A DNA stretch of 64,000 nt from Gemmatimonadota bacterium (GCA_965116475.1 OZ220691.1:2080001-2144000); one strand, 5' to 3'. Positions 36,803 to 63,140 are shown, counted from the first letter of the stretch. Made by a program: numbers and translations. The notes: generated from the sequence alone by a model not told the origin.

Positions 36803-37462
36803 GTGCCGCGGCCGCGTTCCTGGAAGGCTCGTTCGGAGTTGGCCGCGGCCCTGTCGCCGCGACTTGCCGCCCTCTACCCGGACCTCACCGTCTCGCTGGA
36901 CTGGGAGACGCCGCTCGAGCTGATCGTCGCGACGGTGCTCTCGGCCCAGTGCACGGACGAGCGGGTGAACCGCGTCACGCGCTCGCTGTTCCCGGCCTAT
37001 CCCGACGCCCGCGCGTACGCCGACGCGCCGCTGGAGGAGCTTCAGGAGGCCGTGCGCCCGACGGGGTTCTTCAACAACAAGGCGCGCCACCTGAAGGGAT
37101 TGGGCCGCCGTCTCGTCGATGTGTACGGCGGGGAGGTCCCGCGGACGATGGAGGAGCTGCTCACGCTGCCGGGCGTCGCCCGCAAGACTGCGAACGTCGT
37201 GCTCTCCAACGCGTTCGGGCTTCACGAGGGCGTGGTCGTGGACACGCACGTGAAGCGGGTCACGCACCGCTTCGGTCTCACGAACGAGGTGGACCCCCCG
37301 AAGGTGGAGAAGGATCTGATGAGGGTGCTGCCGCGCGAGGAATGGCACCCCTTCGCGTGGCGGTCGATCCTGCATGGCCGCACCGTGTGCCACGCCCGGA
37401 AGCCGCGTTGCGCCGAGTGTCCGGTGGCCGATCTGTGCGCGAGCGCCGGGAAGTTCGGGTGA
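36803..37462 (+). CDS. nth: Endonuclease III
   Basis: LSAQCTDERVN, LPGVARKTAN, VDTHV, C-X6-C-X2-C-X5-C. Confidence 0.96.
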   Translation: MPRPRSWKARSELAAALSPRLAALYPDLTVSLDWETPLELIVATVLSAQCTDERVNRVTRSLFPAYPDARAYADAPLEELQEAVRPTGFFNNKARHLKGLGRRLVDVYGGEVPRTMEELLTLPGVARKTANVVLSNAFGLHEGVVVDTHVKRVTHRFGLTNEVDPPKVEKDLMRVLPREEWHPFAWRSILHGRTVCHARKPRCAECPVADLCASAGKFG

Positions 37463-37463
37463 C

Positions 37464-38537
37464 GTGAGTGTCGCCCGCGATGCCGCCGCGCTGAAGCGGG
37501 ACGTGCGCGCCGCCGCGCGGTCCGCCGGGTTCGACCGGGTGGGGTTCGCTCCCGCGGCGCCCCCGGCGCACGCGGGCGTCTACGAGGCCTGGCTCGCCGA
37601 CGGCTACCACGGCGAGATGGCCTACATGGCGCGCGAGGACGCGGTCCGCCGCCGCCTGGACCCGCGAGAGGCCCTTCCCGGCTGCCGGACGCTCATCGTC
37701 GTCAGCCTGCAGTACGGACCGACGCACGCCGGCACGACGACACCGGCGCGGCGGCTGCCGGTCGTCGCCCGCTACGCGCGGGGCCGCGACTACCACGATG
37801 TGTTCGAGGAGCGGCTCGACGCGCTCTCCGCCGCCATCGAAGCGCTTTCCCCCGGCGCGCGCACGAAGCGCTACGTGGACTACGGGCCCGTGCTCGAGCG
37901 GGACCACGCGCAGCGCGCGGGCCTGGGCTGGATCGGCAAGAACACGATGCTCCTCCACCCCGACCTCGGGTCCTATTTCATGCTGGGCGAGTTGCTCACC
38001 GACCTCGAGATCGAACCCGATCCCCCCTTCGTCCCCGACCGCTGCGGCACCTGCCGCCGCTGCATCGACGCCTGCCCGACGGACGCGATTCTGGATGGCC
38101 GCGTTCTCGACGCGCGGCTCTGCATCTCCTATCTCACGATCGAACTCCGGGGTTCCATCCCCGAGGCGCTCCGCCCCGCGATCGGAAACCGTGTGTTCGG
38201 CTGCGACATCTGCCAGGAAGTGTGTCCCTGGAACGCCGACGCGCCCGTGCCCGCGAAGGCGCCGTTCGCGCCCCGCCCCGGCCAGCCGGTGCCGCCTGAC
38301 GACATGATCGCGTGGGCGGAAGAACTCGCCCCCCTCGACGCCGACGAGTTCCGGGCCCGCTACCGCGGCACGGCGTTCAGCCGCCCCGGCCGCGACGGAC
38401 TCCTCCGCAACCTCGCCGTCGGCCTCGGCAACGCCGGCGAACCCGCCGCCCGCCCGATCCTCGACCGACTGCGGGCGGACCCGTCCCCCCTCGTCCGCGA
38501 GCACGCCCGATGGGCGCTCGGCGTGCTCCAGAGTTAG
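37464..38537 (+). CDS. queG: tRNA epoxyqueuosine(34) reductase
   Basis: ARYARGRDYH, GLGWIGKN, CGTCRRCIDACPT, CISYLTIE, FGCDICQEVCPWN, C-terminal HEAT. Confidence 0.95.
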   Translation: MSVARDAAALKRDVRAAARSAGFDRVGFAPAAPPAHAGVYEAWLADGYHGEMAYMAREDAVRRRLDPREALPGCRTLIVVSLQYGPTHAGTTTPARRLPVVARYARGRDYHDVFEERLDALSAAIEALSPGARTKRYVDYGPVLERDHAQRAGLGWIGKNTMLLHPDLGSYFMLGELLTDLEIEPDPPFVPDRCGTCRRCIDACPTDAILDGRVLDARLCISYLTIELRGSIPEALRPAIGNRVFGCDICQEVCPWNADAPVPAKAPFAPRPGQPVPPDDMIAWAEELAPLDADEFRARYRGTAFSRPGRDGLLRNLAVGLGNAGEPAARPILDRLRADPSPLVREHARWALGVLQS

Positions 38538-42114: not shown

Positions 42115-42546
42115 ATGCTCGGCGGCAGAAACCCCGGCCTCGGTCTGGCCATCCTCCGCGTCGTAATCGGACTGATCTTCGTGATGCACGGCTGGCCGAA
42201 GCTGGCCGGCGGCATCGAAGGCACCGCGGCGTTCCTCGGGTCGCTCGGAGTGCCGCTCTCCGGCGTCGTCGCGTGGGGGATCGCGCTGGCCGAGACCCTG
42301 GGCGGCGCCTGCCTGGTCGCGGGCCTGCTCGTGACGCCCTTCGCCCTGCTTCTCGCCGCCCACATGCTGGCGGGGATCTTCCTCGTGCACCTGGCCAACG
42401 GCTTCTACGTCGTGGGCCCGGGCCAAGGGGGCTACGAGTTCAACCTGCTCCTGGTCGCCGCCCTGCTGACCCTGGTGCTGGCCGGATCGGGGATCGCGAC
42501 GGCCAGGAGCCTCTTCACGAGCGACGTCGAGGTCGTCATCGACTGA
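42115..42546 (+). CDS. DoxX family membrane protein
   Basis: LRVVIGLIFVMHGWPKL, AETLGG, GGYEFNL. Confidence 0.9.
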   Translation: MLGGRNPGLGLAILRVVIGLIFVMHGWPKLAGGIEGTAAFLGSLGVPLSGVVAWGIALAETLGGACLVAGLLVTPFALLLAAHMLAGIFLVHLANGFYVVGPGQGGYEFNLLLVAALLTLVLAGSGIATARSLFTSDVEVVID

Positions 42547-42595
42547 GACGTTCCCGCGCATCGACACCGCGGACGGGGCCATGTAGACTGGAAGC

Positions 42596-42925
42596 ATGCG
42601 CCGATTCGCGATTCCCCTGCTTCTTGCCGCGCTCGTGCTTCCGTACGCGCGCGCCCCGCTGTGCGAGGCGGGGTCGCACGAGCACGGGGAGCACCACGCG
42701 ATGGCGGGATCGCCGACGCTCGTCGAGTCTCCGGTGGAGGGCGCGGACGCCGGCACGGACTGTCACTCGCTGATGGGTTGCGCCGTCGTGCTGCAGGCCT
42801 CGCTTCCGCTCGGCACGGCCGGCTTCCGCTCTTTCGCGCACGACGCGGACGCCGCGCCCGCCGGCGCCGCACTCCAACTCCGGTCCCGAGCCTCTCCCGA
42901 CACCCCTCCGCCCCAAACCGTCTGA
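42596..42925 (+). CDS. His/Cys-rich exported leader protein, CutF/CruR(DUF2946)-like
   Basis: Signal peptide, C..HEHGEHH, CHSLMGC, C-terminal PDTPPP; immediately upstream of cusCBA. Confidence 0.7.
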   Translation: MRRFAIPLLLAALVLPYARAPLCEAGSHEHGEHHAMAGSPTLVESPVEGADAGTDCHSLMGCAVVLQASLPLGTAGFRSFAHDADAAPAGAALQLRSRASPDTPPPQTV

Positions 42926-43014
42926 ACGGACGCACCCACAGGAGCGTCCCGGTCGCCGTTAGACGACGGCGACCCGTGGGCGAGTTGTCACCGTTCAGAT
43001 GAGAGGCATCTCAT
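42921..43014 (+). promoter_or_regulatory. Structured leader between uORF stop and cusC RBS
   Basis: TCTGAACGG(42921-29)/CCGTTCAGA(42991-99); GGTCGCCGT(42951-59)/ACGGCGACC(42966-74); ATGAGA-GGCA-TCTCAT (42999-43014) covers the SD and start. Confidence 0.6.
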
Positions 43015-44323
43015 GCCAGCCGTATACCATGCCGGCGTGTCCCGCAGGAAGGGCGGGATCCGCGGAGGCATCCGGCTCTTCGCGTGTGCCGTGGCGGCAG
43101 GCGGGGCCATGGCGTCTCAGTCGCGGGCGCAGGAGCGCGACACGCTCCACCTGGCCGACGCGGTCGCCGTGGCGCGCGGCGCGAACCCGATGCTGCGGGT
43201 CGCCCGCCTGCGAGCCGACGCCGCCCGGGCGCGCGTGCCGCAGATGGGCGCACCGCCCGATCCGGTCGTCGCGTTCCGCCTCGGAAACCGCCCCCTCGAC
43301 GGCTTCGGAGCGGGCGAGAGAATGACGATGAACACGCTCCAGTTCCAGCAGACGCTGCCCTGGCCGGGGAAGCTCGGGTTCGCGGAGGCGCGCGCGGCAC
43401 ACCTCGCGGGCGCCGAGGAACTGGCGGTCCTCGACGCCGAGGCCGCCCTCGTCCGGCGCGTGAAGGCGGTGTACTTCGAACTCGCCTTCGAAGACCGGGC
43501 ACTGGACATCATGCGCGACACGCGCGACCTCCTGCGTGAGTTTCTCGACGTCTCCAACACGCTCTACGCCGTGGGGGCCGGCCTGCAGAACGATGTCCTG
43601 CAGGCGCAGGTGGCCGTCGCCACGATGAGCGAGGACATCACGGCGGCGGAACAGACCCGGCTCGCCATGGCGGCCCGACTGAACGCGCTCCTGGGGCGCG
43701 AGCCCGAACGGCACGTGGGGGCGCTCGAACTTCCCGGTGCCGGCGAGCCGCTTCCCGGCGTGAAGGACCTCATGGCCCTGGCTGCCGAGAGACGGCCCGC
43801 GCTGCGCGCCGCCCGCGAGCGAATCCGGGCCGCGGAGTCGGCCTACGAGGGCGCCCGCCGCGCCCTGTACCCGGATGTGAGGCTCGGGGCCGACTACGCG
43901 CACCGGCCGCAGTTCGCGGACATGCTGAGTTTCAGCGTGGGAGTCAGCATCCCGCTATGGGCGGGTTCCCGCCAATTGCCCATGCGGGACGAAGCGTTCG
44001 CCCGCCGGGCCGCCGAGGAAGCCGCCGAACTCGAACTCCTGAACGAGACCTATGCCCGGATCGCGGAGGCGCGGGCCGAGTCGGACCGGGCGCTGCGACT
44101 CCACGACCTCTATGCCACGTCGATCCTCCCCCAGGCGCGGGCGGCGGTCGAGTCGTCGCTCTCCGCCTACCGCGTGGGTGAGGTGGATTTCATGACGCTC
44201 GTGCAGAGCGAACTCACCGTGAACCGCTACGAGATCGAACGCGTGAGACTCACCGCCGCCTATCACACGGCCGTCGCGGAGATCGAAGCGTTGCTGGGGG
44301 GCGAAACGGAGGTGATCCGATGA
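43013..44323 (+). CDS. cusC: TolC-family outer membrane factor (CusC-like)
   Basis: OEP repeats, QTLPWPGKL, VSIPLW, AYRVGEVDF; first gene of RND triad. Confidence 0.85.
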   Translation: MPAVYHAGVSRRKGGIRGGIRLFACAVAAGGAMASQSRAQERDTLHLADAVAVARGANPMLRVARLRADAARARVPQMGAPPDPVVAFRLGNRPLDGFGAGERMTMNTLQFQQTLPWPGKLGFAEARAAHLAGAEELAVLDAEAALVRRVKAVYFELAFEDRALDIMRDTRDLLREFLDVSNTLYAVGAGLQNDVLQAQVAVATMSEDITAAEQTRLAMAARLNALLGREPERHVGALELPGAGEPLPGVKDLMALAAERRPALRAARERIRAAESAYEGARRALYPDVRLGADYAHRPQFADMLSFSVGVSIPLWAGSRQLPMRDEAFARRAAEEAAELELLNETYARIAEARAESDRALRLHDLYATSILPQARAAVESSLSAYRVGEVDFMTLVQSELTVNRYEIERVRLTAAYHTAVAEIEALLGGETEVIR

Positions 44324-45546
44324 CGCGACTCAACCTCTTGCCGGCCGCGCGCGCCGGGGTCGGGCTCGTTCCGGTCGCAGCCGCGCTCTGGGCCTGCGGC
44401 GGCGGCTCCGAGATGGCGGAGATGCCCGGCATGGAAGGCGATCACTCCGCGCACATGCCCGCCATGGCCGCGCCCTCGGAACCCGACACGATGCCGGCGT
44501 TCGGGCGCGGCCTCGTGCAGCTTACGTCGGAGCAGGAGCAGGCGCTGGGCGTCACGTACACCGCCGTGGAGCGGATCTCGGCGGTGCGCGAGATCCGGAC
44601 CGTGGGCCGCATCGACGCCCCCGAGGGCAACATCGCCGACATCACGCCCAAGACCGACGGCTTCGTCGAAGAACTGCTGGTCGCGACGACGGGTGAGGCC
44701 GTTCGCCGCGGCGAGCCGCTGCTCACGATCTACAGCCCCGCGCTCGTGGCGGCCCAGGAAGAACTCCTGACCGCACGCCGGCTCGCCGCGCAGGTGGACC
44801 CGGCGGCCACCGAGGCATGGTCGGGCGCGCAGTCCATGCTCGAGGCCAGCCGCCGCCGCCTCGCCTGGTGGGATATCACCGAGGAGCAGATCGAGCGGCT
44901 CGAACAGACGGGAGAGGTGACCAAGACGATGCGTCTCGTCGCTCCCGTGAGCGGGATCGTGCTCGAGAAGGATGTCGTCGAAGGACAGCGGGTGACGCCG
45001 GGTATGCGCCTGTACCGGATCGCCGACCTGTCGACCGTTTGGGTGGAGGGAGAGGTATTCGAACAGGACCTCCAGTTCGTCGAGGTGGGTTCCCAGGCCC
45101 ATATCGAGGTCACCGCCTATCCGGGCGAACACATGATGGGGGCGGTGAGCTTCGTCTATCCCACCGTGGAGATCGCGAGCCGCACGAACCGGGTCCGGGT
45201 CTCCGTGCCGAACCCCGGCCTGCGCTTCAAGCCCGGGATGTTCGCCACCGTCTTCTTCGAGGTCGCGGCGATCCAGGACGAAATCGCGGTGCCGCTGGAG
45301 GCCGTCGTCGTCACCGGTGAGAGGAACCTCGTCTTCGTGCGCGACGAGACGGGACTTCTGATGCCGCATGAGGTGGTGCTGGGGGCGCGCGCCGGAGATC
45401 GCGTCCAGATCCTCAGCGGTCTCGTGGAAGGTGAGACGATCGTCGCCTCCGCGAACTTCCTCATCGATGCCGAGTCCCGCCTCGGTGCGACGGGCGGGAG
45501 CATGCCCGGCATGCAGCACGCGGGGCACGGAATGGAGGGACGATGA
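44320..45546 (+). CDS. cusB: RND efflux periplasmic adaptor (CusB-like), Met/His-rich termini
   Basis: Lipobox WAC, IYSPALVAAQEEL, IADLSTVWV, KPGMFA, ANFLIDAES. Confidence 0.88.
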   Translation: MTRLNLLPAARAGVGLVPVAAALWACGGGSEMAEMPGMEGDHSAHMPAMAAPSEPDTMPAFGRGLVQLTSEQEQALGVTYTAVERISAVREIRTVGRIDAPEGNIADITPKTDGFVEELLVATTGEAVRRGEPLLTIYSPALVAAQEELLTARRLAAQVDPAATEAWSGAQSMLEASRRRLAWWDITEEQIERLEQTGEVTKTMRLVAPVSGIVLEKDVVEGQRVTPGMRLYRIADLSTVWVEGEVFEQDLQFVEVGSQAHIEVTAYPGEHMMGAVSFVYPTVEIASRTNRVRVSVPNPGLRFKPGMFATVFFEVAAIQDEIAVPLEAVVVTGERNLVFVRDETGLLMPHEVVLGARAGDRVQILSGLVEGETIVASANFLIDAESRLGATGGSMPGMQHAGHGMEGR

Positions 45547-48500
45547 TCACGCGCGTCATCGCGTGGTCGATCCGGAACCGGCTCCTCGTGCTTCTCGGGA
45601 CCGCCGCGATCATCGGCGCGGGCCTTTGGTCCGTGCGTACGACGCCGCTCGATGCGATCCCGGACCTCTCGGATGTCCAGGTCATCGTCCAGACCGACTT
45701 CGCGGAACAGGCCCCGCAGATCGTCGAGGACCAGGTGACGTACCCGATCGCGTCCGAGATGCTGAAGGTGCCGGGCGCGCGCGTCGTGCGCGCATTTTCC
45801 TTCTTCGGGCTCAGCCTCGTGTACGTGATCTTCGAGGACGGCACGGACATCTACTGGGCCCGTTCCCGCGTGCTCGAATACCTGAACGGAATCCGGCGGC
45901 AGTTGCCGGAGAACGTCGAACCCGTGCTCGGCCCGGACGCGACGGGCGTGGGCTGGGTCTACGAGTACACGCTCGAATCCGACAGCCTGGACCTCGCCGA
46001 ACTGCGCACGCTCCAGGACTGGTACCTCCGCTATCAGCTGACCGCGGTGCCGGGCGTGGCCGAGGTCGCGAGCCTGGGCGGGTTCGTGAAGCAGTACCAG
46101 GTGGAAGTGAACCCGGAGCGGCTGCGCGCGTTCGACATCCCCGTCACGCGCGTGTCGCAGGCGATCGGCGACCACAACATCGACATCGGGGCTCGCGTCC
46201 TCGAGATGGGCGGGCGCGAATACATGATTCGCGGCCTCGGCTACCTGCGGGGGACCGTGGACATCGAGAACGTGGCCGTCGGATCGACGCCGAACGGCAC
46301 ACCGATCCGGGTGGCCGACGTGGCGATCGTGCAGGAAGGCCCGGCTCCCCGGCGCGGCGTCGCGGATCTCGACGGCCGGGGCGAGGTCGTGGCCGGGATC
46401 GTCGTCATGCGCTTCGGCTCGGACGCACTCGAGACGATCGAGCGGGTCAAGGAGCGGCTGGAGGAGATCAACGCGGGGCTGCCCGCCGGGACCCGGCTGC
46501 GGCCGGCCTACGACCGGAGCGACCTCATCCACCGGGCGATCGACACGCTACGCGAGAAACTCGTGGAGGAATCGCTCATCGTCGCGGCCGTGGCGCTGAT
46601 CTTCCTGCTCCACGTCCGCTCGGCGCTCGTCGCGATCGTGACGCTGCCCCTCGGCATCCTCATCTCGTTCATCGTCATGCGCTGGATCGGCGTGAACGCC
46701 AACATCATGAGCCTCGGCGGGATCGCCATCGCGATCGGGGCGATGGTGGACGCGGCCATCGTCATGGTCGAGAACATGCACAAGCATCTCGAGCGCGCGG
46801 CACCCGGCACATCTCGCTGGGACGTGGTCCTCGAGAGCGCGAAGCAGGTGGGTCCGCCCCTCTTCTTCTCCCTCCTCATCATCACGTTCAGCTTCCTTCC
46901 GGTGTTCGCGCTCGAGCAGCAGGAGGGCCGGCTGTTCAAGCCCCTCGCGTTTACCAAGACGTTCGCCATGGCGGGGTCCGCGTTCCTCGCGATCACGCTG
47001 GTTCCCGTGCTCATGGGGTATCTCGTGCGCGGGCGGATCCGTCCGGAGCGGGCCAACCCGGTGAATCGCGTCCTGCGCTGGCTCTATCGACCCTTCCTGG
47101 GCTTCGCGCTGCGCCGCCCATGGCTCGTGGTCTGCGCCGCCGTGGCGCTGCTCGGGGCCACGATCTTCCCGTGGCAGCGGCTCGGCAGCGAGTTCATGCC
47201 GCCGCTGCAGGAGGGGTCGATCCTCTTCATGCCGACCACCGTGCCGGGGGCGTCGATCGCCCAGGCGCGGGAGATCATGCGGTACCAGGACAGCGTCCTC
47301 GCGTCGTTTCCCGAGGTTGAGCGTGTGTTGGGGAAAGCGGGGCGCGCGGAAACCGCCACGGATCCGGCCCCGCTCGACATGTTCGAGACGACGATCACGC
47401 TGCGGCCGCCGGAGGATTGGCGCCCCGGCGTGACGTACGCCGGGCTGCTCGCGCAGATGGACGAGGCGGTCGCGCTCCCCGGCGTGACCAACGCGTGGAC
47501 GATGCCGATCAAGGGACGCATCGACATGCTCGCCACCGGCGTGCGCACCCCGGTGGGGATCAAGATCTTCGGACCGAATCTCGACACGCTGCAGGCGCTC
47601 GGGGAGGAGGCTGAGCGGATCGTGCGCCGGATCCCCGGGACGCGGAGCGCGTTCGCGGAGCGCGGGGTCTCCGGGTATTACGTCGACATCGATGTCGACC
47701 GGCCGGAGGCGGCGCGCTACGGCCTCAACGTCGGGGATGTGCACAACGCGATCATGGCGACCGTCGGCGGGATGAACGCGACGGTCACCGTGGAGGGGCG
47801 GGAGCGCTACGCCGTGAACGTCCGCTACCCGCGCGAACTGCGGGACGACCTGCAGAACCTGCGCGAGGTGCTGGTCCCGGTCCCCGATGGCACGCAGATC
47901 CCGCTCGGCCAGGTGGCACGCGTCGCGGCTGTCCAGGGGCCCATGGCCGTGAAGACCGAGAATGCCTTTCCCGTGACGACGATCTTCGTCGATATCGAGG
48001 GAGTGGATGTCGGGAGTTACGTGGACGAGGCCCGGCGCGTCGTCGCATCCCAACTCGAACTTCCCAGCGGGTACTCCCTCGTGTGGAGCGGGCAATACGA
48101 ATTCATGCAGCGGGTGCAGGAGCGTCTGCGCGTCGTGATTCCGGTCACGCTCGCCATCATCTTCCTGCTCCTCTACCTCAACTTCCGCGGCGTGGCCGAA
48201 TCGCTGATCGTCATGCTCGCCCTGCCGTTCTCGCTCGTGGGCGGCATCTGGTTCCTGTGGCTGCTGGGCTACAACACGAGCGTCGCGGTCTGGGTCGGGT
48301 TCATCGCGCTCGCCGGCGTGGCGGCGGAGACGGGCGTCGTGATGCTGATATACCTGGACGAGGCGTTCCGCCGCCGCCTCCGCGAAGGACGGATCGAGAC
48401 CGCCGCGGACGTGATGGCGGCGGTTCGCGAAGGGGCCCTGGAGCGGCTGCGTCCCGTGGTGATGACGGTGACGGCGATCACGGCGGGGCTGATGCCGATC

Positions 48501-48680
48501 CTGTGGAGTTCGGGCACCGGCGCGGACGTGATGAAGCGGATCGCCTCGCCCATGGTCGGAGGAATGATCTCCGCGACCGTCCTCACGTTGCTCGTGATCC
48601 CCGCCATCTACCTCCTGTGGCGCCGGTGGCAACTCCGGCGCCTGGCGGTCGCATCGACGCCGCCCGCTTCCCGGGCGTGA
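45543..48680 (+). CDS. cusA: Cu(I)/Ag(I) efflux RND permease CusA
   Basis: PLDAIPDLSDVQVI, GPDATGVGW, GAMVDAAIVMVEN, EFMPPL, DPAPLDMFET, RIDML, GADVMKRIASPMVGG. Confidence 0.95.
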   Translation: MITRVIAWSIRNRLLVLLGTAAIIGAGLWSVRTTPLDAIPDLSDVQVIVQTDFAEQAPQIVEDQVTYPIASEMLKVPGARVVRAFSFFGLSLVYVIFEDGTDIYWARSRVLEYLNGIRRQLPENVEPVLGPDATGVGWVYEYTLESDSLDLAELRTLQDWYLRYQLTAVPGVAEVASLGGFVKQYQVEVNPERLRAFDIPVTRVSQAIGDHNIDIGARVLEMGGREYMIRGLGYLRGTVDIENVAVGSTPNGTPIRVADVAIVQEGPAPRRGVADLDGRGEVVAGIVVMRFGSDALETIERVKERLEEINAGLPAGTRLRPAYDRSDLIHRAIDTLREKLVEESLIVAAVALIFLLHVRSALVAIVTLPLGILISFIVMRWIGVNANIMSLGGIAIAIGAMVDAAIVMVENMHKHLERAAPGTSRWDVVLESAKQVGPPLFFSLLIITFSFLPVFALEQQEGRLFKPLAFTKTFAMAGSAFLAITLVPVLMGYLVRGRIRPERANPVNRVLRWLYRPFLGFALRRPWLVVCAAVALLGATIFPWQRLGSEFMPPLQEGSILFMPTTVPGASIAQAREIMRYQDSVLASFPEVERVLGKAGRAETATDPAPLDMFETTITLRPPEDWRPGVTYAGLLAQMDEAVALPGVTNAWTMPIKGRIDMLATGVRTPVGIKIFGPNLDTLQALGEEAERIVRRIPGTRSAFAERGVSGYYVDIDVDRPEAARYGLNVGDVHNAIMATVGGMNATVTVEGRERYAVNVRYPRELRDDLQNLREVLVPVPDGTQIPLGQVARVAAVQGPMAVKTENAFPVTTIFVDIEGVDVGSYVDEARRVVASQLELPSGYSLVWSGQYEFMQRVQERLRVVIPVTLAIIFLLLYLNFRGVAESLIVMLALPFSLVGGIWFLWLLGYNTSVAVWVGFIALAGVAAETGVVMLIYLDEAFRRRLREGRIETAADVMAAVREGALERLRPVVMTVTAITAGLMPILWSSGTGADVMKRIASPMVGGMISATVLTLLVIPAIYLLWRRWQLRRLAVASTPPASRA

Positions 48681-48702: not shown

Positions 48703-49191
48703 TCAACCGCCCGGCGGACCCAGCGGGCTCGGCTCGCAGTTCTCCGTTTCGCGGGTGTAGGCGATGCTGGAGATCTTCCAGCCGTCTCCGCCACGAACGA
48801 GGCTCACCGCGTCGATCCCGCAGTGGCTGAACCGGCCGTCCACGTGGAAGTCGTAGGGCGTCCACACGACGGCGATCGGACCCTCGATCATCACGTGCGG
48901 GTCCCACATCCGTTCGAGCAGGGCGGGGCCCGGCTGGCCGATGGAGGCGGCGAACTCGGCGCCCGTGCTCTCCCGGACCTGAACTCCGTCTGGGGTCTCC
49001 GCCGTGGCCACGAAGGTGGCGCCTTCGGTCAGCAGGCCGCGGATCGCATCGCCGTCGCGGGCGGCCATGGCGTCGAAGAGGGCCTGCACGGCGGCGACCG
49101 CCCCCGCTTCGGCGTCATCCTGCCCGGCGGCAACCGCGGGCGTGGCGAGGATCGCCGCGGCGAGAAGGAACGTCGCTCCCAACTTTCTCAT
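48703..49191 (-). CDS. Secreted NTF2-like (SnoaL/lumazine-binding-like) protein
   Basis: Signal peptide; LFDAMAARD, ERMWDP, VWTPYDF, HCGID, WKISSI. Confidence 0.8.
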   Translation of the reverse strand: MRKLGATFLLAAAILATPAVAAGQDDAEAGAVAAVQALFDAMAARDGDAIRGLLTEGATFVATAETPDGVQVRESTGAEFAASIGQPGPALLERMWDPHVMIEGPIAVVWTPYDFHVDGRFSHCGIDAVSLVRGGDGWKISSIAYTRETENCEPSPLGPPGG

Positions 49192-49258
49192 GAGATTCTC
49201 CCGATTTCTGTCGTCGGTGGTCCTTCGTCCGGCCGGTCTCCATGACACGTCCGGACGC

Positions 49259-51049
49259 TCAGTACGCGGTGGTGCGGAGCACCGGCTGGAAAAGGGCCGT
49301 GCGGTGCGCGCAGACGGGGTCCGCGGGGCACGCCGCGCAGTCGGGTTCCGTCATCTCCGGGCACCGCGTCCGGTTCTGAAAGAAGAACCAGTCCACGGCG
49401 CCCATCGAGCGTCCGCTCAGGCGCCGGATCTCCCCGACCGCCTCGTAGCAGGCGGCGCGCACGGCCTCCTCCTCTTCCACGCTCACAACCTCCCGCTTCG
49501 CGAGCTTCGCGGCCAGCGTCTCGTCGACCGCGGAGACGACGCCGAGCCGGAGGCAACTGCGCTGGCAGTGGTAGTCGATGATCGGCGGCACGTCCGCGGC
49601 CTCCCCCAGCCGCAGGAAGCGCTCCGGCCGCTGGCTGAGGATCGCCGCGAGGAGGGCGGACTTCTTGCGCCACGGGTCCTCCTTGTAGCCGCCGACCGCA
49701 TCGAGGCGAGCGAGAAAGCGGACCAGGGGCCGCTCCGCGGCGTTGGCTTCGGCCAGGAGCGACGCCGGGGTCAGGCCGAGGCCCACCATGTCGCGGCCGT
49801 ATGCCCGCGCGCACGCCGGATGGAGAACGCCCGCGGGGAGCGGGTTGCGGCCTCCGTCGTCCCGGAGGCGATGGTCGAAGTCCGCGTCGTCGAGGCCGGC
49901 CTGGCCCGCGGGGGTGAGTTCGTCCGGCGCCTCGCGGGCCCAGCGCAGGCAGGCGGCCCACAGGTAGTCGCTGCCCTTGAGGGCCCGGCCCCCCAGCGAG
50001 GCGATCATCGGTTCCCCGTAGCGGGCCGCGCGCTCGTGCCAGAAACCGAACTGCTGCACGGTGCCGGCGAAGAAGAAATCGAGCGCCGCCGGATCGCCGG
50101 GTGCGGGGAAGCCGGAGCCCGTGAAGTCGAAGGCCGCGGCTTCGGGCGCCGTCGCGATGACCCCGGCCACGCGCCGAATGCGATCCCCGTTGAGGCGGAC
50201 CCGGGCATCTCGCGCCGGCGCCGCCGGCGGGTCGTCCGAGAGGAGGGGCGCCGGACCGATGCCGGTCACCGTGTGCGCGGCCCGGGCCGCCGCCACGCGC
50301 GCCGCGATGGCGGGGTGGTCTCCGGCCGCGAGCCGGGCCAGCGCCGTCCCGCAGAAGGTGTCGCCGGCGCCCGTCGGATCCACCTCCGCGACCTCGGGGG
50401 TGGGGATGTCGATCGCGTGGTCGCCCACGACGACGCGAGCCCCGCTGGGCCCCCGCGTGACGAAGACCGCGCGCCCCGGCGCGGCCGCCACCCGATCGAG
50501 CGACCCGAAGAGGAGACCGGCCTCCTCCTCGTTGCAGAAGAAGTAGTGGGACGTCTCCGCCACCCGCGCGACGACCTCCCGGTGCGCCCGGATCCCCGGC
50601 GCGTACGTCCCGCACCCGACGCGGACGCCCGCCGCCGACAGCCGCCGCGCGAACCCCAACTGCAGCTCCGGATCGAGGAGAGGGACGACGTACGCGAAGG
50701 CGCCCGGTCCCGCGTCGGGGATGTCGCCGTAGCGGATGTCCCCCTCGGAACCGCGCACCGCCCGGCGATAGACGGTGCGGCCATCGGGAAAGTACTCGAT
50801 CTCGAAGTGGGGGAGCGCCGAGGGCGGGACGGGCGGCCCGCGCCAGTCGAGGAGGCGGTCCGCCGGTTCGAGTTCCGCCGGCATGGGATCGGGCCGCGGC
50901 GCGACGACCGTCACTGCGGCTCCGGCCCGTTGCGCCGCGAGCGCCGTGTAGAGTCCCGCGCCCCCGGCGGACCGCACGGAGCGGCCGCCGAAGTGCAGGA
51001 GGTCCAGTGAGGGGCTCCCGACCACGAGGAGCCGTGGCCGGGTGCTCAT
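49259..51049 (-). CDS. PfkB-family kinase fused to Qng1/DUF2419 (queuosine salvage)-like domain with C-terminal 4-Cys Fe-S motif
   Basis: N-half GGAG, NEEEA, VTRGPSG, DPTGAGDTF; C-half QFGFW, GSDYL, DPWRKKSALL, IIDYH..R..LRLG, EEAVRAAC, VDWFFF, C-X7-C-X2-C-X5-C. Confidence 0.8.
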   Translation of the reverse strand: MSTRPRLLVVGSPSLDLLHFGGRSVRSAGGAGLYTALAAQRAGAAVTVVAPRPDPMPAELEPADRLLDWRGPPVPPSALPHFEIEYFPDGRTVYRRAVRGSEGDIRYGDIPDAGPGAFAYVVPLLDPELQLGFARRLSAAGVRVGCGTYAPGIRAHREVVARVAETSHYFFCNEEEAGLLFGSLDRVAAAPGRAVFVTRGPSGARVVVGDHAIDIPTPEVAEVDPTGAGDTFCGTALARLAAGDHPAIAARVAAARAAHTVTGIGPAPLLSDDPPAAPARDARVRLNGDRIRRVAGVIATAPEAAAFDFTGSGFPAPGDPAALDFFFAGTVQQFGFWHERAARYGEPMIASLGGRALKGSDYLWAACLRWAREAPDELTPAGQAGLDDADFDHRLRDDGGRNPLPAGVLHPACARAYGRDMVGLGLTPASLLAEANAAERPLVRFLARLDAVGGYKEDPWRKKSALLAAILSQRPERFLRLGEAADVPPIIDYHCQRSCLRLGVVSAVDETLAAKLAKREVVSVEEEEAVRAACYEAVGEIRRLSGRSMGAVDWFFFQNRTRCPEMTEPDCAACPADPVCAHRTALFQPVLRTTAY

Positions 51050-51059
51050 GCCGCCGGCG

Positions 51060-52445
51060 TCAGCCGCCCTGCTGGCCCTGCTGCTGGTCCGTCGTGATGC
51101 GCCCGGCCGCGCCCGCCGGCCCGTTGTCCCAGTCCTGGGCGCTGGAGATGTTCGGCACGCCCCAGTCCTCGCCGTTCCAGCCCTGGAAGCCCTCCATCCG
51201 GAAGGTCCACAGACCCGTCGTCATGTCGCTCACCACGATGAGTCCATCCTCGTTGCGGATGTCGACCCCGAACGTGCCGTTGAAGACGGGGGTCCGGTCG
51301 ACGTTCGGCGGCCCGAGGTAGGTGTCGTAGTGGCCCACCGTCATCGGGTTCTCCGGGTCCATCATGTTGAACACGACGAGTCCGTCCAGGTAGCCCGACA
51401 CGAACACGAGCGGCCAGCGCACCTCGTGGTTGTGGACGAGGTTCTTCCAGTTCGCCGTCCACGCCGCGATCGGGCGGTTGATGGCGGACACCTCGCCGTT
51501 CAGTCCCGGCCGGAGATCGAAGATCCTCAGCGGCGCGTACTGATACTCGGTCTCGGCGATCGCGAAGTTCCCGTCCGGCGTGGGCGTGAACGTGTGGCCG
51601 CTGCGAATCCCGGAGACCCCGACGATCTGCGTCAGAAGCTCGGGGCTCCCGAGATCCGTCACGTCGTAGATGTAGTAGCCGCCCGTGCCGCCGCCGTAGA
51701 AGCGGTCCGTCCCGGTTTCCGGGTGATAGCCGAGATAGAAATCGTGGTATCCCCGCCGCCGGTTCCCCTGCATCCCCTGATCCGGGACCGGAATCTGCGC
51801 CACCATCTCATCGCCCCGTCCCTCGACGAGCGCGCCGAGGTCGTAGACGGCCGCGTACGGTCCCGAGACCGTGGCGACGAGATACACGTTCATGTTCGAG
51901 TGCTTGTAGATGAAGATGTTGTGGAAGCCGCCCGGGAGATCGGGCTCCCTGATGCGGGCCACCTCACGCACCGTCGAGGCGTCCGGCAGGCCCGTGACGT
52001 CGAGGACCACGGCCCCCATGTCGGAGTCCGGGCCGCCCTGCCCGAACTGGAGCGACTGCACGACGTAGTAGCGGTCCCCCCACTTGAAGTGCTTCACGTC
52101 CATCCCGCCGGTGCGCTGGTGGAGGTCCTGGTCCTCGATCCGCCACTCGTAGAGCACCTCGGGGTTCTCCGGGTCCTCGATGGAGACGATGTCCAGCCCC
52201 TTTGGGCCCACCGGCCCGTACTGCATGCGCGCCACGTACGCGTAGGGCCGGTGCATCTCCTGCTCGATGTCCATGTCCGCGATGCTGAGCCGCGGGCCGA
52301 GCGGGACGTGTCCGAGCACTTCCATGTTCCGGCTGCCGCGCTCCACGACATCGATCGCCTGGGCGTCGAGTGCCGCCGGGGCGACGAAGACCGCTCCGAG
52401 CACGGCGAGCGCGGAGAGCGTCAGGGTCCGATTTCCAACCTTCAT
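51060..52445 (-). CDS. Secreted LVIVD-repeat beta-propeller protein
   Basis: Signal peptide; GLDIVSIEDP, VVLDVT, YYIYDVTD, LRIFDL, GLVVFNMMDP; GGAGG RBS. Confidence 0.8.
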   Translation of the reverse strand: MKVGNRTLTLSALAVLGAVFVAPAALDAQAIDVVERGSRNMEVLGHVPLGPRLSIADMDIEQEMHRPYAYVARMQYGPVGPKGLDIVSIEDPENPEVLYEWRIEDQDLHQRTGGMDVKHFKWGDRYYVVQSLQFGQGGPDSDMGAVVLDVTGLPDASTVREVARIREPDLPGGFHNIFIYKHSNMNVYLVATVSGPYAAVYDLGALVEGRGDEMVAQIPVPDQGMQGNRRRGYHDFYLGYHPETGTDRFYGGGTGGYYIYDVTDLGSPELLTQIVGVSGIRSGHTFTPTPDGNFAIAETEYQYAPLRIFDLRPGLNGEVSAINRPIAAWTANWKNLVHNHEVRWPLVFVSGYLDGLVVFNMMDPENPMTVGHYDTYLGPPNVDRTPVFNGTFGVDIRNEDGLIVVSDMTTGLWTFRMEGFQGWNGEDWGVPNISSAQDWDNGPAGAAGRITTDQQQGQQGG

Positions 52446-52479
52446 TCTTTCCTCCGTTTTCGAACTGGCGGCCCGCGAG

Positions 52480-54213
52480 CTAGCCGGGATCCACCGTGAA
52501 CACCATGGACATGCCGGCCTCCAGATGCTCCGCAATATGGCAGTGCGCCATCCAGCGGCCAGAGTTGGAGGCCTCGAGCAGGATGTCGAACGTCGACCCG
52601 ACCGGGATCACGACCGTGTCCTTCCAGGCGAGATTGTCCGACGGCACCCCGTCCTTCGAGAGCACGAGGAAGCGCTGGCCGTGGATATGGATCGGGTGCT
52701 GCATCGGGTGGAACGAGCGGCGCTGGTTGTGGATGCGGATCTTCCGCACGTCCCCCACCGTGAACCGCCAGTCGATGTCCCGGTTCTCCTGCCCCGTCCG
52801 CGTGTCGCGCAGGATCCAGGTCAGGTTCTCCGATGTCGAGAGGAAGTTCATCATCGGCATCGCGTCCGTCCACTCCACGGGCGGGAAGTACAGCGTGTCG
52901 ATCGCCATCACCGCGACGATGTCGCTGGGGAGGTTCCCCACCCGGACCGTGAGTTCGAGTTCGTGGTCGACCGGCCGGCCGAACTCGCCGCGGTAGCGGT
53001 CAATGTCCTCGATGACGTCCACGTGCGCGCGCAGAGTGGAGAACGCGTCCCCGTGGTCCTCCGCCACCGGTTCGTCGAGGACCGTGACGAGCCCGAGCGT
53101 ATCCGTCTGCGGATAGAAGCGGCCGTTGAAGTGGTCGATGGCCTGGATCGGGTTGAGGAGCGCGTACGTGCCGGGCTCGTCGAAGCGGGCGTCGACGATG
53201 TACCGCTGGGCCGGGGCGAGGACGACGTTGGAGACGAAGCTCTCGCGCTCGAACTTGCTCACGTCGGCGCCGACGAGCTTCATCTCCGCGCCCTCGAGGA
53301 CGAGGTTGAAGGTGCGCGTGTTGGCGACGTTCGTGAGATAGAGGCGGCGAACCTCGCCGCGGCGGACCGTCGCCTCCCAGCGCGGCTCGCCGTTCACGAG
53401 CAACTGGTTCCCGAACCGGCCCATGAGCGTCTGCACGGCGGCTTCGCGTCCCCAGGGGAAGAGTCCTCCCTCGTCGACGAGCAGGTCGTCGAGCATGAGA
53501 AAGTCCTCGCCGTTCGCGGGACCGTAGTAGTCCGCGGCGGAGGCGTCGACGAGCATGTTCCCGTACAGGCCGAGGTCCTGCTGGATGTCCTCGCGGTGAT
53601 GGGGGTGGTACCAGTAGAGGCCGGCGTCCCGGAAATGGACCCGGTACATGAACGACTCGCCGGGCTCGACCGGATCCTGGGTGACTCCGGGGACGCCATC
53701 GAACTCGTTCTCGAGCCGGACGCCGTGCCAGTGGACGGCCGTCGGCAGGTCGATGTGGTTCGTGAACAGGACGATGATCTCCGCGCCCTGCGGGACGCGG
53801 ATGAGGGGACCGGGATACTGCCCGTTGAAGCCGTACATCGTGAAGGTCCGCGTCCCGATCGTGCGCCGCACGAACCCGGCCTCGAGGCGGAGCGTGTCGC
53901 CGTCGGCCATCTCCACGACCTCGCGGAAGACCGCCTCCGGGAGCATCGCCGGATCGTGGCCGGGGTCGGGCAGGTACGGGGTCACTACGGGGACGGCGCC
54001 CATCAGGCCCGGAAGCATCATCGGCATCGGGATCGGCTGCGGCGGCATGCGCCACACGGCCCCCGTGCTGTCCGTCGCCATCATGTGGCCCGCGTGCTGC
54101 TGCCCCGATGCCGGTGCGCCGCCCAGCCACACCAGCGCCTGAAAGGCCGCGCCGGCCGCGAAGGTACGGGCTGCCCGGTTGCCCGGTCGGCTCCTCGCCG
54201 CGCGAGGCATCAC
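52480..54213 (-). CDS. Three-domain multicopper oxidase (CueO/CopA-like)
   Basis: HWHG, YWYHPH, HPIHIHG, HCHIAEHLEAGM; Met-rich N-terminus. Confidence 0.93.
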   Translation of the reverse strand: MMPRAARSRPGNRAARTFAAGAAFQALVWLGGAPASGQQHAGHMMATDSTGAVWRMPPQPIPMPMMLPGLMGAVPVVTPYLPDPGHDPAMLPEAVFREVVEMADGDTLRLEAGFVRRTIGTRTFTMYGFNGQYPGPLIRVPQGAEIIVLFTNHIDLPTAVHWHGVRLENEFDGVPGVTQDPVEPGESFMYRVHFRDAGLYWYHPHHREDIQQDLGLYGNMLVDASAADYYGPANGEDFLMLDDLLVDEGGLFPWGREAAVQTLMGRFGNQLLVNGEPRWEATVRRGEVRRLYLTNVANTRTFNLVLEGAEMKLVGADVSKFERESFVSNVVLAPAQRYIVDARFDEPGTYALLNPIQAIDHFNGRFYPQTDTLGLVTVLDEPVAEDHGDAFSTLRAHVDVIEDIDRYRGEFGRPVDHELELTVRVGNLPSDIVAVMAIDTLYFPPVEWTDAMPMMNFLSTSENLTWILRDTRTGQENRDIDWRFTVGDVRKIRIHNQRRSFHPMQHPIHIHGQRFLVLSKDGVPSDNLAWKDTVVIPVGSTFDILLEASNSGRWMAHCHIAEHLEAGMSMVFTVDPG

Positions 54214-62149: not shown

Positions 62150-62223
<74 letters not shown>

Positions 62224-62228
62224 TCTCT

Positions 62229-62264
62229 CGCCTCGCCTCGCAAAGCTGCGGGGCGAGGCGTTTT
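62229..62264 (+). terminator. Intrinsic terminator-like hairpin after tRNA-fMet
   Basis: CGCCTCGCCTCGCA-AAGC-TGCGGGGCGAGGCG followed by TTTT. Confidence 0.65.
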
Positions 62265-62309
62265 GCTCTCCGATCCGTTTTGCGGAACGCTTGCGGGACG
62301 GGAGTACGA

Positions 62310-62382
62310 TCCGGGGTAGCTCAGTGGCCAGAGCGGGTGGCTGTTAACCACTAGGTCGTGGGTTCGAATCCCACCCCCGGAG
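62310..62382 (+). tRNA. tRNA-Asn (GTT)
   Basis: TCCGGGG acceptor, GGTGG-CTGTTAA-CCACT. Confidence 0.95.
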
Positions 62383-62417
62383 TAGGACAGCAGGGCTCTT
62401 GCCACGGGCTGTCAAAG

Positions 62418-62490
62418 GGCTGGGTAGCTCAGGCGGTAGAGCACGGCGCTGAAAACGCCGGTGTCGGCGGTTCGACTCCGCCCCCAGCCA
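62418..62490 (+). tRNA. tRNA-Phe (GAA)
   Basis: GGCTGGG/CCCAGCC, CGGCG-CTGAAAA-CGCCG. Confidence 0.95.
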
Positions 62491-62533
62491 TTTTGCCACG
62501 GGCCGCCAATGGCCGGTTCGCGGGAAGCGGCAA

Positions 62534-62606
62534 AGGGGCGTAGCTCAATTGGTAGAGCACCGGTCTCCAAAACCGGCGGTTGGGGGTTCGAGTCCCTCCG
62601 CCCCTG
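62534..62606 (+). tRNA. tRNA-Trp (CCA)
   Basis: AGGGGCG/CGCCCCT, CCGGT-CTCCAAA-ACCGG. Confidence 0.95.
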
Positions 62607-62609
62607 TCG

Positions 62610-62681
<72 letters not shown>

Positions 62682-62706
62682 TGGAGCAGCTGGAACGGGA
62701 TGGCGG

Positions 62707-62781
62707 GCGCCCGTAGCTCAGTTGGATCAGAGCACCGGCCTTCTAAGCCGGGGGTCCCAGGTTCGAGTCCTGGCGGGCGCG
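62707..62781 (+). tRNA. tRNA-Arg (TCT)
   Basis: GCGCCCG/CGGGCGC, CCGGC-CTTCTAA-GCCGG. Confidence 0.95.
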
Positions 62782-62827
62782 TGGCAGTCAGGCGACAACG
62801 GACGACATTCGGACGACAGCGGCACGA

Positions 62828-62899
62828 GCCCCCATCGTCCAACGGCTAGGACACCACTCTTTCAAGGTGGAGATAGGGGTTCGATTCCCCTTGGGGGTA
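62828..62899 (+). tRNA. tRNA-Glu (TTC)
   Basis: GCCCCCA/TGGGGGT, CCACT-CTTTCAA-GGTGG. Confidence 0.93.
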
Positions 62900-62917
62900 T
62901 GGACGGAGTTGAAGCGC

Positions 62918-62990
62918 GGGGCCGTAGCTCAGCTGGGAGAGCGCTGCAATGGCATTGCAGAGGTCAGGGGTTCGAATCCCCTCGGCTCCA
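62918..62990 (+). tRNA. tRNA-Ala (GGC)
   Basis: GGGGCCG/CGGCTCC (G3:U70), CTGCA-ATGGCAT-TGCAG. Confidence 0.95.
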
Positions 62991-63050
62991 CTTCGCGGCT
63001 GGAGCGCGACTTGCGGGCGCGAGTCCGTGAACCAGCTTGTGACGTCGTAC

Positions 63051-63123
<73 letters not shown>

Positions 63124-63140
63124 CTTCCCCCGCCTTACTT

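Follow-up and report, generated by a model that had tools for sequence, protein, structure and literature searches.

To our knowledge, Qng1 (DUF2419, PF10343, IPR019438; structures 7U07/7U91 from S. thermophilus and 7UGK from human, where the name is written QNG1) is the sole characterised member of its helix-hairpin-helix (HhH) fold that acts on a free nucleotide. The AMP nucleosidase Amn and the PpnN/LOG family are likewise nucleoside-monophosphate nucleosidases; they belong to unrelated folds and have neither an Fe-S (iron-sulphur) motif nor a fused kinase. Here we describe a gene on the minus strand of a 64,000-nucleotide stretch of DNA from a Gemmatimonadota bacterium (GCA_965116475.1, OZ220691.1:2080001-2144000; the whole stretch is referred to as the window), in which a kinase of the PfkB family is fused to a Qng1-like domain. 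This fusion is a widespread, unstudied two-part enzyme. We hold with about even confidence that it is a kinase plus nucleoside-5'-monophosphate N-glycosidase that acts on a guanine-type nucleoside and yields the base and ribose-5-phosphate: the PfkB domain would use ATP to turn the nucleoside into its 5'-monophosphate, and the glycosidase domain would then hydrolyse this to free base and ribose-5-phosphate. The net effect would be a phosphorylase-free scavenging of a guanine-type (possibly 7-deazaguanine-type) nucleoside, and the proposed chemistry, a nucleoside monophosphate and water giving base and ribose-5-phosphate, would be like that of Amn and PpnN/LOG.

Fold and architecture of the fusion protein

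The gene is divided as follows (ORF, open reading frame; aa, amino acid residues).

49259..51049, minus strand: whole ORF, 596 aa and stop, a PfkB kinase fused to a putative Fe-S Qng1-like N-glycosidase
50240..51049, minus strand: N domain, aa 1-270, a PfkB/ribokinase-family kinase by PF00294, profile and Foldseek
50201..50239, minus strand: interdomain linker, aa 271-283, without secondary structure and outside the matches of both domains
49262..50200, minus strand: C domain, aa 284-596, with a Qng1-like HhH N-glycosidase fold by AlphaFold2 (AF2), Foldseek and profile

The AF2 model of the C domain (predicted local distance difference test, pLDDT, 93.4; predicted template-modelling score, pTM, 0.93) has as its 11 best Foldseek neighbours in the PDB only Qng1/QNG1 structures, with E from 1.4e-12 to 1.2e-10 and template-modelling (TM) scores of 0.72-0.78. 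A profile of 65 broader relatives matches S. thermophilus Qng1 (StQng1) over 288 positions at E 3.1e-15, and a profile of 41 close relatives matches human QNG1 at E 1e-6, in the N lobe only. The beta-hairpin region specific to Qng1 is predicted after the FW motif. The Foldseek ranking and the StQng1 profile match agree with a reading made earlier from the sequence alone (below, the sequence-only reading), which had called this half Qng1/DUF2419-like and had suggested PF10343 as a check; most relatives do match that family, and the protein itself does not. Among 13 full-length homologues, PF10343 exceeds its 25-bit gathering score in seven, reaches 24.6 bits in one and is weak in three; it is found at E<=1 in 36 of the 41 close C-domain relatives and at E<=0.01 in 43 of 55 distant representatives. 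The fold is common to both proteins at about 15-20% identity, but Qng1 is described as metal-independent and monomeric (Hung et al. 2023, PMC9881137), whereas the present protein is fused to a kinase and carries a four-Cys loop.

In the full-length AF2 model (pLDDT 94.3, pTM 0.93) the lowest internal pLDDT, 85, falls in the block 271-280, and the pTM of 0.93 implies that the arrangement of the two domains is confidently fixed. The motifs quoted in the sequence-only reading are all real and occur in the translation: GGAG (aa 29-32), NEEEA (173-177), TRGPSG (198-203) and DPTGAGDTF (224-232) in the N domain, and QFGFW (333-337), GSDYL (359-363), DPWRKKSALL (458-467), IIDYH (490-494), EEAVRAAC (527-534) and VDWFFF (552-557) in the C domain; its coordinates for the KK pair (49661-49666) and for D492 (49574-49576) are correct.

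Close to the C terminus lies a loop with four Cys.

49310..49363, minus strand: C563-X7-C571-X2-C574-X5-C580, a putative [4Fe-4S] loop, inserted where the Qng1 C-terminal tail begins

The complete set of four Cys is found in 63 of the 65 relatives, including stand-alone proteins at 22-45% identity, and the loop is modelled with a pLDDT of 88-95. Because C563 aligns to StQng1 L308, just ahead of the 15-residue tail of StQng1, the loop would add some 18 residues at the point where the tail sets in. In EndoIII, MutY and ROS1, as here, the HhH Asp is followed some 70 residues on by a C-terminal C-Xn-C-X2-C-X5-C; the first spacing is X7 in the present protein and X6 in those of EndoIII type, and the nth product encoded in the window (36803-37462, plus strand; TIGR01083, E 6e-73) carries C-X6-C-X2-C-X5-C. 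The family profile matches ROS1 weakly, from the HhH Asp through the Cys loop (E 0.007), its match to EndoIII is weak as well (E 0.37-0.9), and PF10576 appears in one relative at E 0.006, below cut-off. By analogy with EndoIII/MutY, the loop would bind a [4Fe-4S] cluster, and we propose that it was inherited from, or is shared with, the DNA-glycosylase branch of the fold. The EndoIII-type Fe-S tail described in the sequence-only reading stands as a motif, which is real and nearly invariant, while the cluster itself would follow from the analogy.

A protein with such a loop could instead be an Fe-S HhH glycosylase that acts on DNA or RNA and to which a kinase is fused incidentally. The Cys loop resembles that of EndoIII/MutY, ROS1 is matched at E 0.007, many Arg and Lys residues are conserved, and the Foldseek class next after Qng1 is made up entirely of Fe-S HhH DNA glycosylases (EndoIII, NTHL1 and MutY/MUTYH; E >=4.4e-3, TMq 0.30-0.49), the best being EndoIII itself (E 4.4e-3, TMq 0.49). 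We nevertheless consider this explanation highly improbable. TM scores to EndoIII/MutY are 0.44-0.49, against 0.72-0.78 to Qng1, and AGOG and OGG1 rank further down; the possibility raised at the outset, that the domain would side with AGOG/HhH-GPD enzymes rather than with PF10343, was examined, and Qng1 proved far closer structurally. PF00730 (HhH-GPD) gives no match in the protein and is seen in only 2 of the 41 close relatives, at E>=0.025. Unlike EndoIII-type enzymes, the present protein has Qng1-type insertions, among them the predicted beta-hairpin, and the C-terminal Tyr tail; in Qng1 this tail makes contact with a free 3'-OH, and the insertions leave no open cleft for DNA (PMC9881137). 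Fusion to a small-molecule kinase and the nucleoside transporters adjacent to related genes also suit small molecules, not DNA.

Active-site residues and the probable base

Pocket residues were mapped by profile alignment only, with counts taken over the 65 relatives and residue roles taken from Hung et al. 2023 (PMC9881137). The register of the alignment is fixed by chain 7ulc, a D231N mutant, whose Asn falls where the catalytic Asp is expected. Positions shared with StQng1 are:

F336: StQng1 F75, ribose stacking, in 61/65
49661..49666, minus strand: K462-K463, with K462 equivalent to K199 (the HhH Lys; 61/65) and K463 to R200 (60/65)
L466: StQng1 I203, base sandwich, in 60/65
49568..49576, minus strand: D492-Y493-H494, equivalent to the catalytic D231, the ribose-stacking Y232 and the phosphate ligand K233 (62, 58 and 62/65)
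E527: StQng1 E267, partner of the terminal Tyr, in 55/65
49379..49393, minus strand: D553-W554-F555-F556-F557, with D553 equivalent to the base-recognising D298 (60/65) and F557 to the stacking W302 (F in 30 and W in 30 of 65)
49262..49291, minus strand: C-terminal tail F587-Y596 (FQPVLRTTAY), with the Tyr immediately before the stop

Aligned in this way, the C domain has counterparts of the Qng1 HhH Lys and catalytic Asp, of its ribose-stacking Phe/Tyr and of its C-terminal carboxylate tail, and the Asp that would read the Watson-Crick edge of a guanine-like base (D553) is kept as well. The catalytic Asp and the Lys that had been picked out from the sequence can both be aligned with Qng1 (D492 with D231, K462 with K199). 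The C-terminal Tyr matches StQng1 Y323; it is terminal in 60 of the 65 relatives, and the ending ...FQP..R...Y-stop recurs in 80/80 related loci. In Qng1 the carboxylate of this Tyr (StQng1 Y323) enters the active site and touches the ribose 3'-OH, and C-terminal tags abolish activity (PMC9881137). Because the terminal Tyr tail is kept, a free nucleoside or nucleotide is favoured over a polymer as the substrate.

The residues that give Qng1 its preference for queuosine (Q) fare differently. Its cyclopentenediol specificity pocket consists of the conserved aromatics W48, Y93, W94 and W299, and a proton relay, D69-N72-D207, is linked to the secondary amine of Q (PMC9881137). In the alignment the pocket is not kept: Y93 becomes S360 (S in 55/65), W94 becomes D361 (D/E in 55/65), W48 becomes F309, and the W299 position is variable among the 65 relatives (W 13, Y 12, A 7, others). 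Nor is the relay, in which D69 becomes T330 (T/V/C/I), D207 becomes I470 (I/A/V) and N72 becomes Q333 (Q 37, N 12). Part of the altered pocket forms a motif of its own:

49967..49978, minus strand: K358-G359-S360-D361, a clade-specific 'KGSD' in place of the Qng1 'GYW' (G92-Y93-W94), with K in 51, G in 62, S in 55 and D in 48 (E in 7) of 65

Three defining features of Qng1 disfavour queuosine specificity, which the alignment does not support, and the conserved acidic D361 is placed by it beside the position-7 side of the base. Since the queuosine pocket and relay are replaced and D361 would lie near position 7, we favour an ordinary N7-bearing purine nucleotide (e.g., GMP) or some other 7-deazaguanine over queuosine; the Asp/Glu at the W94 position may serve as a general acid toward N7 in such a purine. 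In the absence of the Q-specific residues, carrying the label 'queuosine salvage' over from PF10343 would probably be wrong.

That label corresponds to the proposal of the sequence-only reading, in which the whole of queuosine salvage is accomplished by one protein, the PfkB half making queuosine-5'-monophosphate (Q-5'MP) and the Qng1-like half freeing queuine. Membership of the superfamily favours it, as do the general catalytic and ribose-binding residues, all of which are kept, the retained guanine-face Asp, and the 8 of 13 full-length homologues at or near the PF10343 cut-off. The known substrates of the fold are Q and Q-5'MP only, and the kinase that makes Q-5'MP is described as unidentified in the Qng1 paper (PMC9881137), where it is also noted that S. 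thermophilus, from which the characterised bacterial Qng1 comes, has no de novo queuosine genes. Against the proposal stand the replacement of two of the four pocket aromatics (Y93 and W94, by Ser and Asp) with W299 variable, the replacement of two of the three relay residues (D69 and D207, by Thr and Ile), and the finding that none of 100 ORFs flanking the fusion gene in 63 loci is a queuosine gene. With the pocket and relay replaced and the neighbourhood devoid of such genes, queuosine fares poorly as the substrate, and we judge one-protein queuosine salvage unlikely.

The queuosine-related genes of the window bear on the same question. As had been stated from the sequence, queG (37374-38537, plus strand; E 3e-106, above cut-off) and a tRNA-Asn(GUU) gene (62310-62382) are both present. 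QueG reduces epoxyqueuosine, which is formed only after preQ1 insertion and the action of QueA; since queG is present, the organism uses the bacterial preQ1 route. Free queuine is useful only with a q-accepting tRNA-guanine transglycosylase (TGT) or a queuine lyase (PMC11130926), so that on the preQ1 route it would be no TGT substrate unless such a lyase were present. The presence of queG had been taken from the sequence as a sign of Q metabolism; it lends no support to queuine salvage, and the preQ1 route, if anything, argues against a need for it. In the main text of the same paper the word 'kinase' does not occur, and PF00294, PfkB, PF10343 and PF07662 were not found in the part of its supplement that was searched.

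Two details of these genes may be recorded. Adjacent nth and queG occupy window positions 36803-38537 on the plus strand and, counted from their first start codons, overlap by 89 nt; the QueG model aligns only from residue 45 onwards, and translation of queG probably starts downstream of the first start codon. The tRNA-Asn gene belongs to a tight array of nine tRNAs (62150-63124, plus strand): Met-CAT, Asn-GTT, Phe-GAA, Trp-CCA, Thr-GGT, Arg-TCT, Glu-TTC, Ala-GGC and Lys-CTT.

The preQ1 route is also relevant to another possibility, that the enzyme salvages a different 7-deazaguanine, freeing preQ1, preQ0 or a related base that could feed a TGT of the preQ1 type. We know of no established environmental source of preQ nucleosides, and this counts against it. 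So do the composition of the 100 flanking ORFs, which include no ureide-permease-type transporter and no queuosine gene, and the chance that the Acidobacteriota qng1 in question lies outside the Fe-S clade. In its favour are the queG of the window and the smaller, acidic S360 and D361, which could suit an aminomethyl group. Moreover, because a transporter of preQ0/preQ1, and not of Q, adjoins an Acidobacteriota qng1 (PMC11130926), a link to 7-deazaguanines stays alive. On balance we regard salvage of such a base as quite unlikely.

The kinase half, the order of reactions and genomic neighbours

PF00294 covers aa 157-267 with 69.5 bits (E 4e-19), well above its gathering cut-off of 25.8, in keeping with the PfkB assignment first made from motifs; in relatives, the match spans the whole kinase domain. 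Many PfkB equivalogs of NCBIfam are matched, all below threshold, so that none of them names a specific kinase. Three motifs were followed in 70 full-length relatives:

50960..50965, minus strand: GG dipeptide G29-G30 (G30 invariant, G29 at least 90%), which we take to be the hinge of the substrate-binding lid of PfkB kinases
50522..50533, minus strand: NxxE motif N173-E176 (N173 and E176 at least 90%), presumably the NxxE motif of PfkB kinases
50360..50380, minus strand: DPTGAGD, D224-D230 (D224 invariant, P225-D230 at least 90%), which we assume to form the PfkB anion hole and catalytic base

DPTGAGD aligns by profile with its counterpart in 3kd6 and in E. coli ribokinase, and the N-terminal G11, S14 and D16 are invariant or at least 90% conserved in the same 70 proteins. 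The best match of the kinase-family profile is 3kd6 (E 1.8e-24, positions 5-267), followed by ribokinases (about 1e-18) and adenosine kinases (1e-14 to 1e-8). In the Foldseek comparison of the full-length model, 3kd6, named 'nucleoside kinase from Chlorobium tepidum', again has the top TMt, 0.74, among kinase neighbours at E of about 1e-13 and TMt 0.62-0.74 that comprise ribokinases and nucleoside kinases and indicate a ribokinase-like fold. Judged by its motifs, the kinase looks catalytically competent and of the ribose/nucleoside type. It shares all catalytic motifs with the PfkB nucleoside kinases (3KD6; M. jannaschii MJ0406, 2C49; B. thailandensis BthNK, 3B1N) and with ribokinases, but is shorter than these (about 270 aa), is matched by Pfam in its C-terminal half only, and is covalently attached to a glycosidase.

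The same two domains could work in the reverse order, the C domain splitting the nucleoside into base and ribose and the PfkB domain, as a ribokinase, converting the ribose to ribose-5-phosphate. The net reaction is the same, and the genomic context fits it equally. Ribokinases come second in the profile search (about 1e-18) and rank high among the structural neighbours, but the best kinase relative, both by profile and by TM score, is a nucleoside kinase. The phosphate site is similarly two-sided. The 5'-phosphate pocket of Qng1 consists of R80, K233, Q306, Y232 and the Y93 backbone, and human QNG1 favours Q-5'MP over Q just 1.7-fold, whereas StQng1 favours the 5'-monophosphate 12-fold (PMC9881137). 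R80 is without clear conservation in the present family, which would suit the reverse order. Speaking against it are the extra conserved basic residues K358, H494, R560 and K463 around the predicted phosphate site: K358, two residues ahead of the Y93 equivalent, is K in 51 and R in 7 of 65 relatives, and in the alignment T561, with R560 (59/65) beside it, takes the place of Q306. The clade-specific K358 and R560 adjoin aligned phosphate-site positions. We doubt that the reverse order is the correct one.

To survey the neighbourhood, 100 ORFs within 400 nt of the fusion gene in 63 loci (61 non-Palauibacter and 2 others) were assigned by Pfam, with the target ORF held fixed. Nucleoside and nucleobase genes account for 19 of the 100. 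The annotated neighbours include:

CNT/NupC nucleoside transporter: 6 flanking ORFs, on the same strand and 1-27 nt away
PNP/UDP-type phosphorylase: 5 flanking ORFs
NCS2 nucleobase permease: 3 flanking ORFs
5'-nucleotidase: 2 flanking ORFs
ADP-ribosylglycohydrolase: 2 flanking ORFs
TRZ/ATZ-type aminohydrolase (amidohydrolase): 1 flanking ORF
Xanthine-dehydrogenase-like protein: 1 flanking ORF
Phosphopentomutase-like protein: 1 flanking ORF
Second PfkB kinase: 1 flanking ORF

Known queuosine genes (TGT, QueA, QPTR and others) were not found among these 100 ORFs. There is no universal operon partner, the best recurrent cluster occurring in 8 of the 61 non-Palauibacter loci. The neighbourhood signal for nucleoside metabolism is suggestive and not universal. 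A nucleoside-catabolism island is seen within about 10 kb around the match in loci from Woeseiaceae and other gammaproteobacteria (L027, L038, L057, L061, L062, L064, L074 and L078); its genes encode a UshA-like 5'-nucleotidase (below cut-off), DeoB (567 against 256 bits), a YjjG-type nucleotidase (193 against 160), a TRZ/ATZ aminohydrolase, a uridine/purine phosphorylase-like protein, an NCS2 permease, a Zn-alcohol dehydrogenase, an SSADH-like aldehyde dehydrogenase and a 190-aa protein without family. In Chloroflexota loci there is an XdhA-like protein (743 bits, below the 780-bit cut-off).

Two Acidobacteriota loci, L039 (11021-11980) and L047 (10970-11926), have the fusion gene after a CNT transporter gene and before one for carbamate kinase (arcC, above cut-off), an arrangement that may link the gene to the catabolism of nitrogen-rich rings.

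Several observations weigh against our preferred reading, phosphorylation of a guanine-type nucleoside followed by hydrolysis of its monophosphate. Residues 275-596 of the protein itself have no match in Pfam, PF10343 included, even at an E of 10, and the C domain alone has no sequence match in the PDB; the kinship with Qng1 emerged solely from family profiles and from the comparison of structures. Among the relatives, Qng1 alone has been characterised, with Q and Q-5'MP as its only known substrates (PMC9881137). A ureide-permease-family transporter encoded beside an Acidobacteriota qng1 imports preQ0/preQ1 and not Q, a result that its authors called unexpected (PMC11130926). Ribokinases, nucleoside kinases, KDG kinase and AIR-riboside kinase score alike as structural neighbours of the N domain, and the order of kinase before glycosidase is one that we infer. 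R80 aligns to variable positions and K233 to H494 (62/65); as R80 is without a clear counterpart and K233 is replaced by His, a preference for nucleotide over nucleoside is likewise only deduced. Finally, the nucleoside-gene signal is found in 17 of the 63 loci only, and the window itself lacks it, its fusion gene being flanked by an LVIVD-like and a DUF4440 gene.

If the preferred reading holds, the fusion would provide a new kinase-plus-nucleotidase route from nucleoside to base and ribose-5-phosphate and a candidate kinase family for (7-deaza)guanosine nucleosides, and an Fe-S cluster in a small-molecule glycosidase would bear on the role of the cluster in DNA glycosylases. A bolder combination, which we would not expect to hold, is that the Fe-S clade links the Fe-S HhH DNA glycosylases to Qng1 and contains the first [4Fe-4S] nucleotide N-glycosidase, that the PfkB lineage of 3kd6 relatives is the sought kinase type that produces 7-deazaguanosine/queuosine 5'-monophosphates, and that the fusion salvages Q, preQ1-riboside or a related nucleoside brought in by CNT-type transporters. 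In the literature searched, which did not take in Zallot et al. 2014 (the first DUF2419 paper, which may mention bacterial fusions), we found no description of a PfkB-Qng1-like fusion or of an Fe-S Qng1; a search for 'queuosine kinase' in that literature returned nothing, and a passage on PfkB in one queuosine paper concerns the neighbours of QueC.

Occurrence of the family and surroundings of the gene

From its ATG, the minus-strand ORF (49259-51049) runs open through 596 codons to the stop; its GC content at third codon positions is 0.92, in a window of 69.7% GC. Among 8000 candidates scored, 445 are relatives at E<=1e-3, the nearest being 88-91% identical and coming from Candidatus Palauibacter (Gemmatimonadota); the closest relatives carry the database name 'carbohydrate kinase family protein'. 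Full-length relatives at 51-57% identity occur in Acidobacteriota and Anaerolineae. A pattern scan of GTDB, with one genome per species, gave 342 candidate stretches, 289 of which encode a confirmed relative, in Gemmatimonadota, Acidobacteriota, Chloroflexota, Woeseiaceae and other Gammaproteobacteria, Polyangiaceae, Spirochaetota, Zixibacteria and Caldithrix. With relatives both in the proteins searched and in GTDB species genomes, the gene is real and conserved. What emerges is a broad bacterial Qng1-like clade, found in 289 GTDB species genomes by a single pattern scan, that has the four-Cys motif and is mostly fused to PfkB. A tblastn search of plasmids with the C domain gave no match.

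Not all members appear to be fused. A search of representatives with the C domain returned 339 proteins at E<=1e-3, in which the fused forms are about 600 aa long and many others, of 310-340 aa, align over their full length, the terminal Tyr included. Because some of these short forms lie on long contigs (P0132, 41 kb; P0192, 244 kb; P0386 and P0387, 14 kb), stand-alone Fe-S Qng1-like forms very probably exist. With the stand-alone P0306 as query, three proteins of 325-335 aa were found, on contigs of <=14.7 kb. The 80 related loci that were fetched are all of the fused, closer type, with no stand-alone form among them; the locus scan used the alignment of close relatives, the broad alignment having offered no sufficiently conserved stretch.

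A different fusion is seen in P0335, a protein of 554 aa from outside the window, in which a GTP cyclohydrolase II domain (PF00925, E 4.5e-38) replaces the kinase. The RKK, VDYH, four-Cys and FQP motifs are all retained in P0335, and a guanine nucleotide is also the substrate of this alternative partner.

The immediate neighbours of the gene in the window, which like the copper genes further out tell nothing about the enzyme, are on the same strand:

48703..49248, minus strand: DUF4440 protein of 181 aa, downstream, 10 nt after the stop (PF14534, E 4.8e-6)
51060..52535, minus strand: 491-aa LVIVD-repeat/choice-of-anchor-B-like protein, upstream, ending 10 nt before the start; a lead only

A downstream ORF of similar size occurs in several Palauibacter loci, and the DUF4440 gene is a possible operon partner, in Gemmatimonadota only. 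The 491-aa protein has no Pfam match; NCBIfam TIGR04312 matches it at E 7e-13, below cut-off, and its Atlas features score is 0.88. The 491-aa LVIVD-like gene is kept upstream of the fusion in Gemmatimonadota loci. Further out on both sides lies a copper-handling neighbourhood (42115-48680, plus strand, and 52480-54213, minus strand), which comprises an HvfX-family Cu-binding protein (a weak match), a CusCBA-like RND efflux operon (OEP, CusB-type HlyD_D23 and AcrB family) and a three-domain multicopper oxidase.

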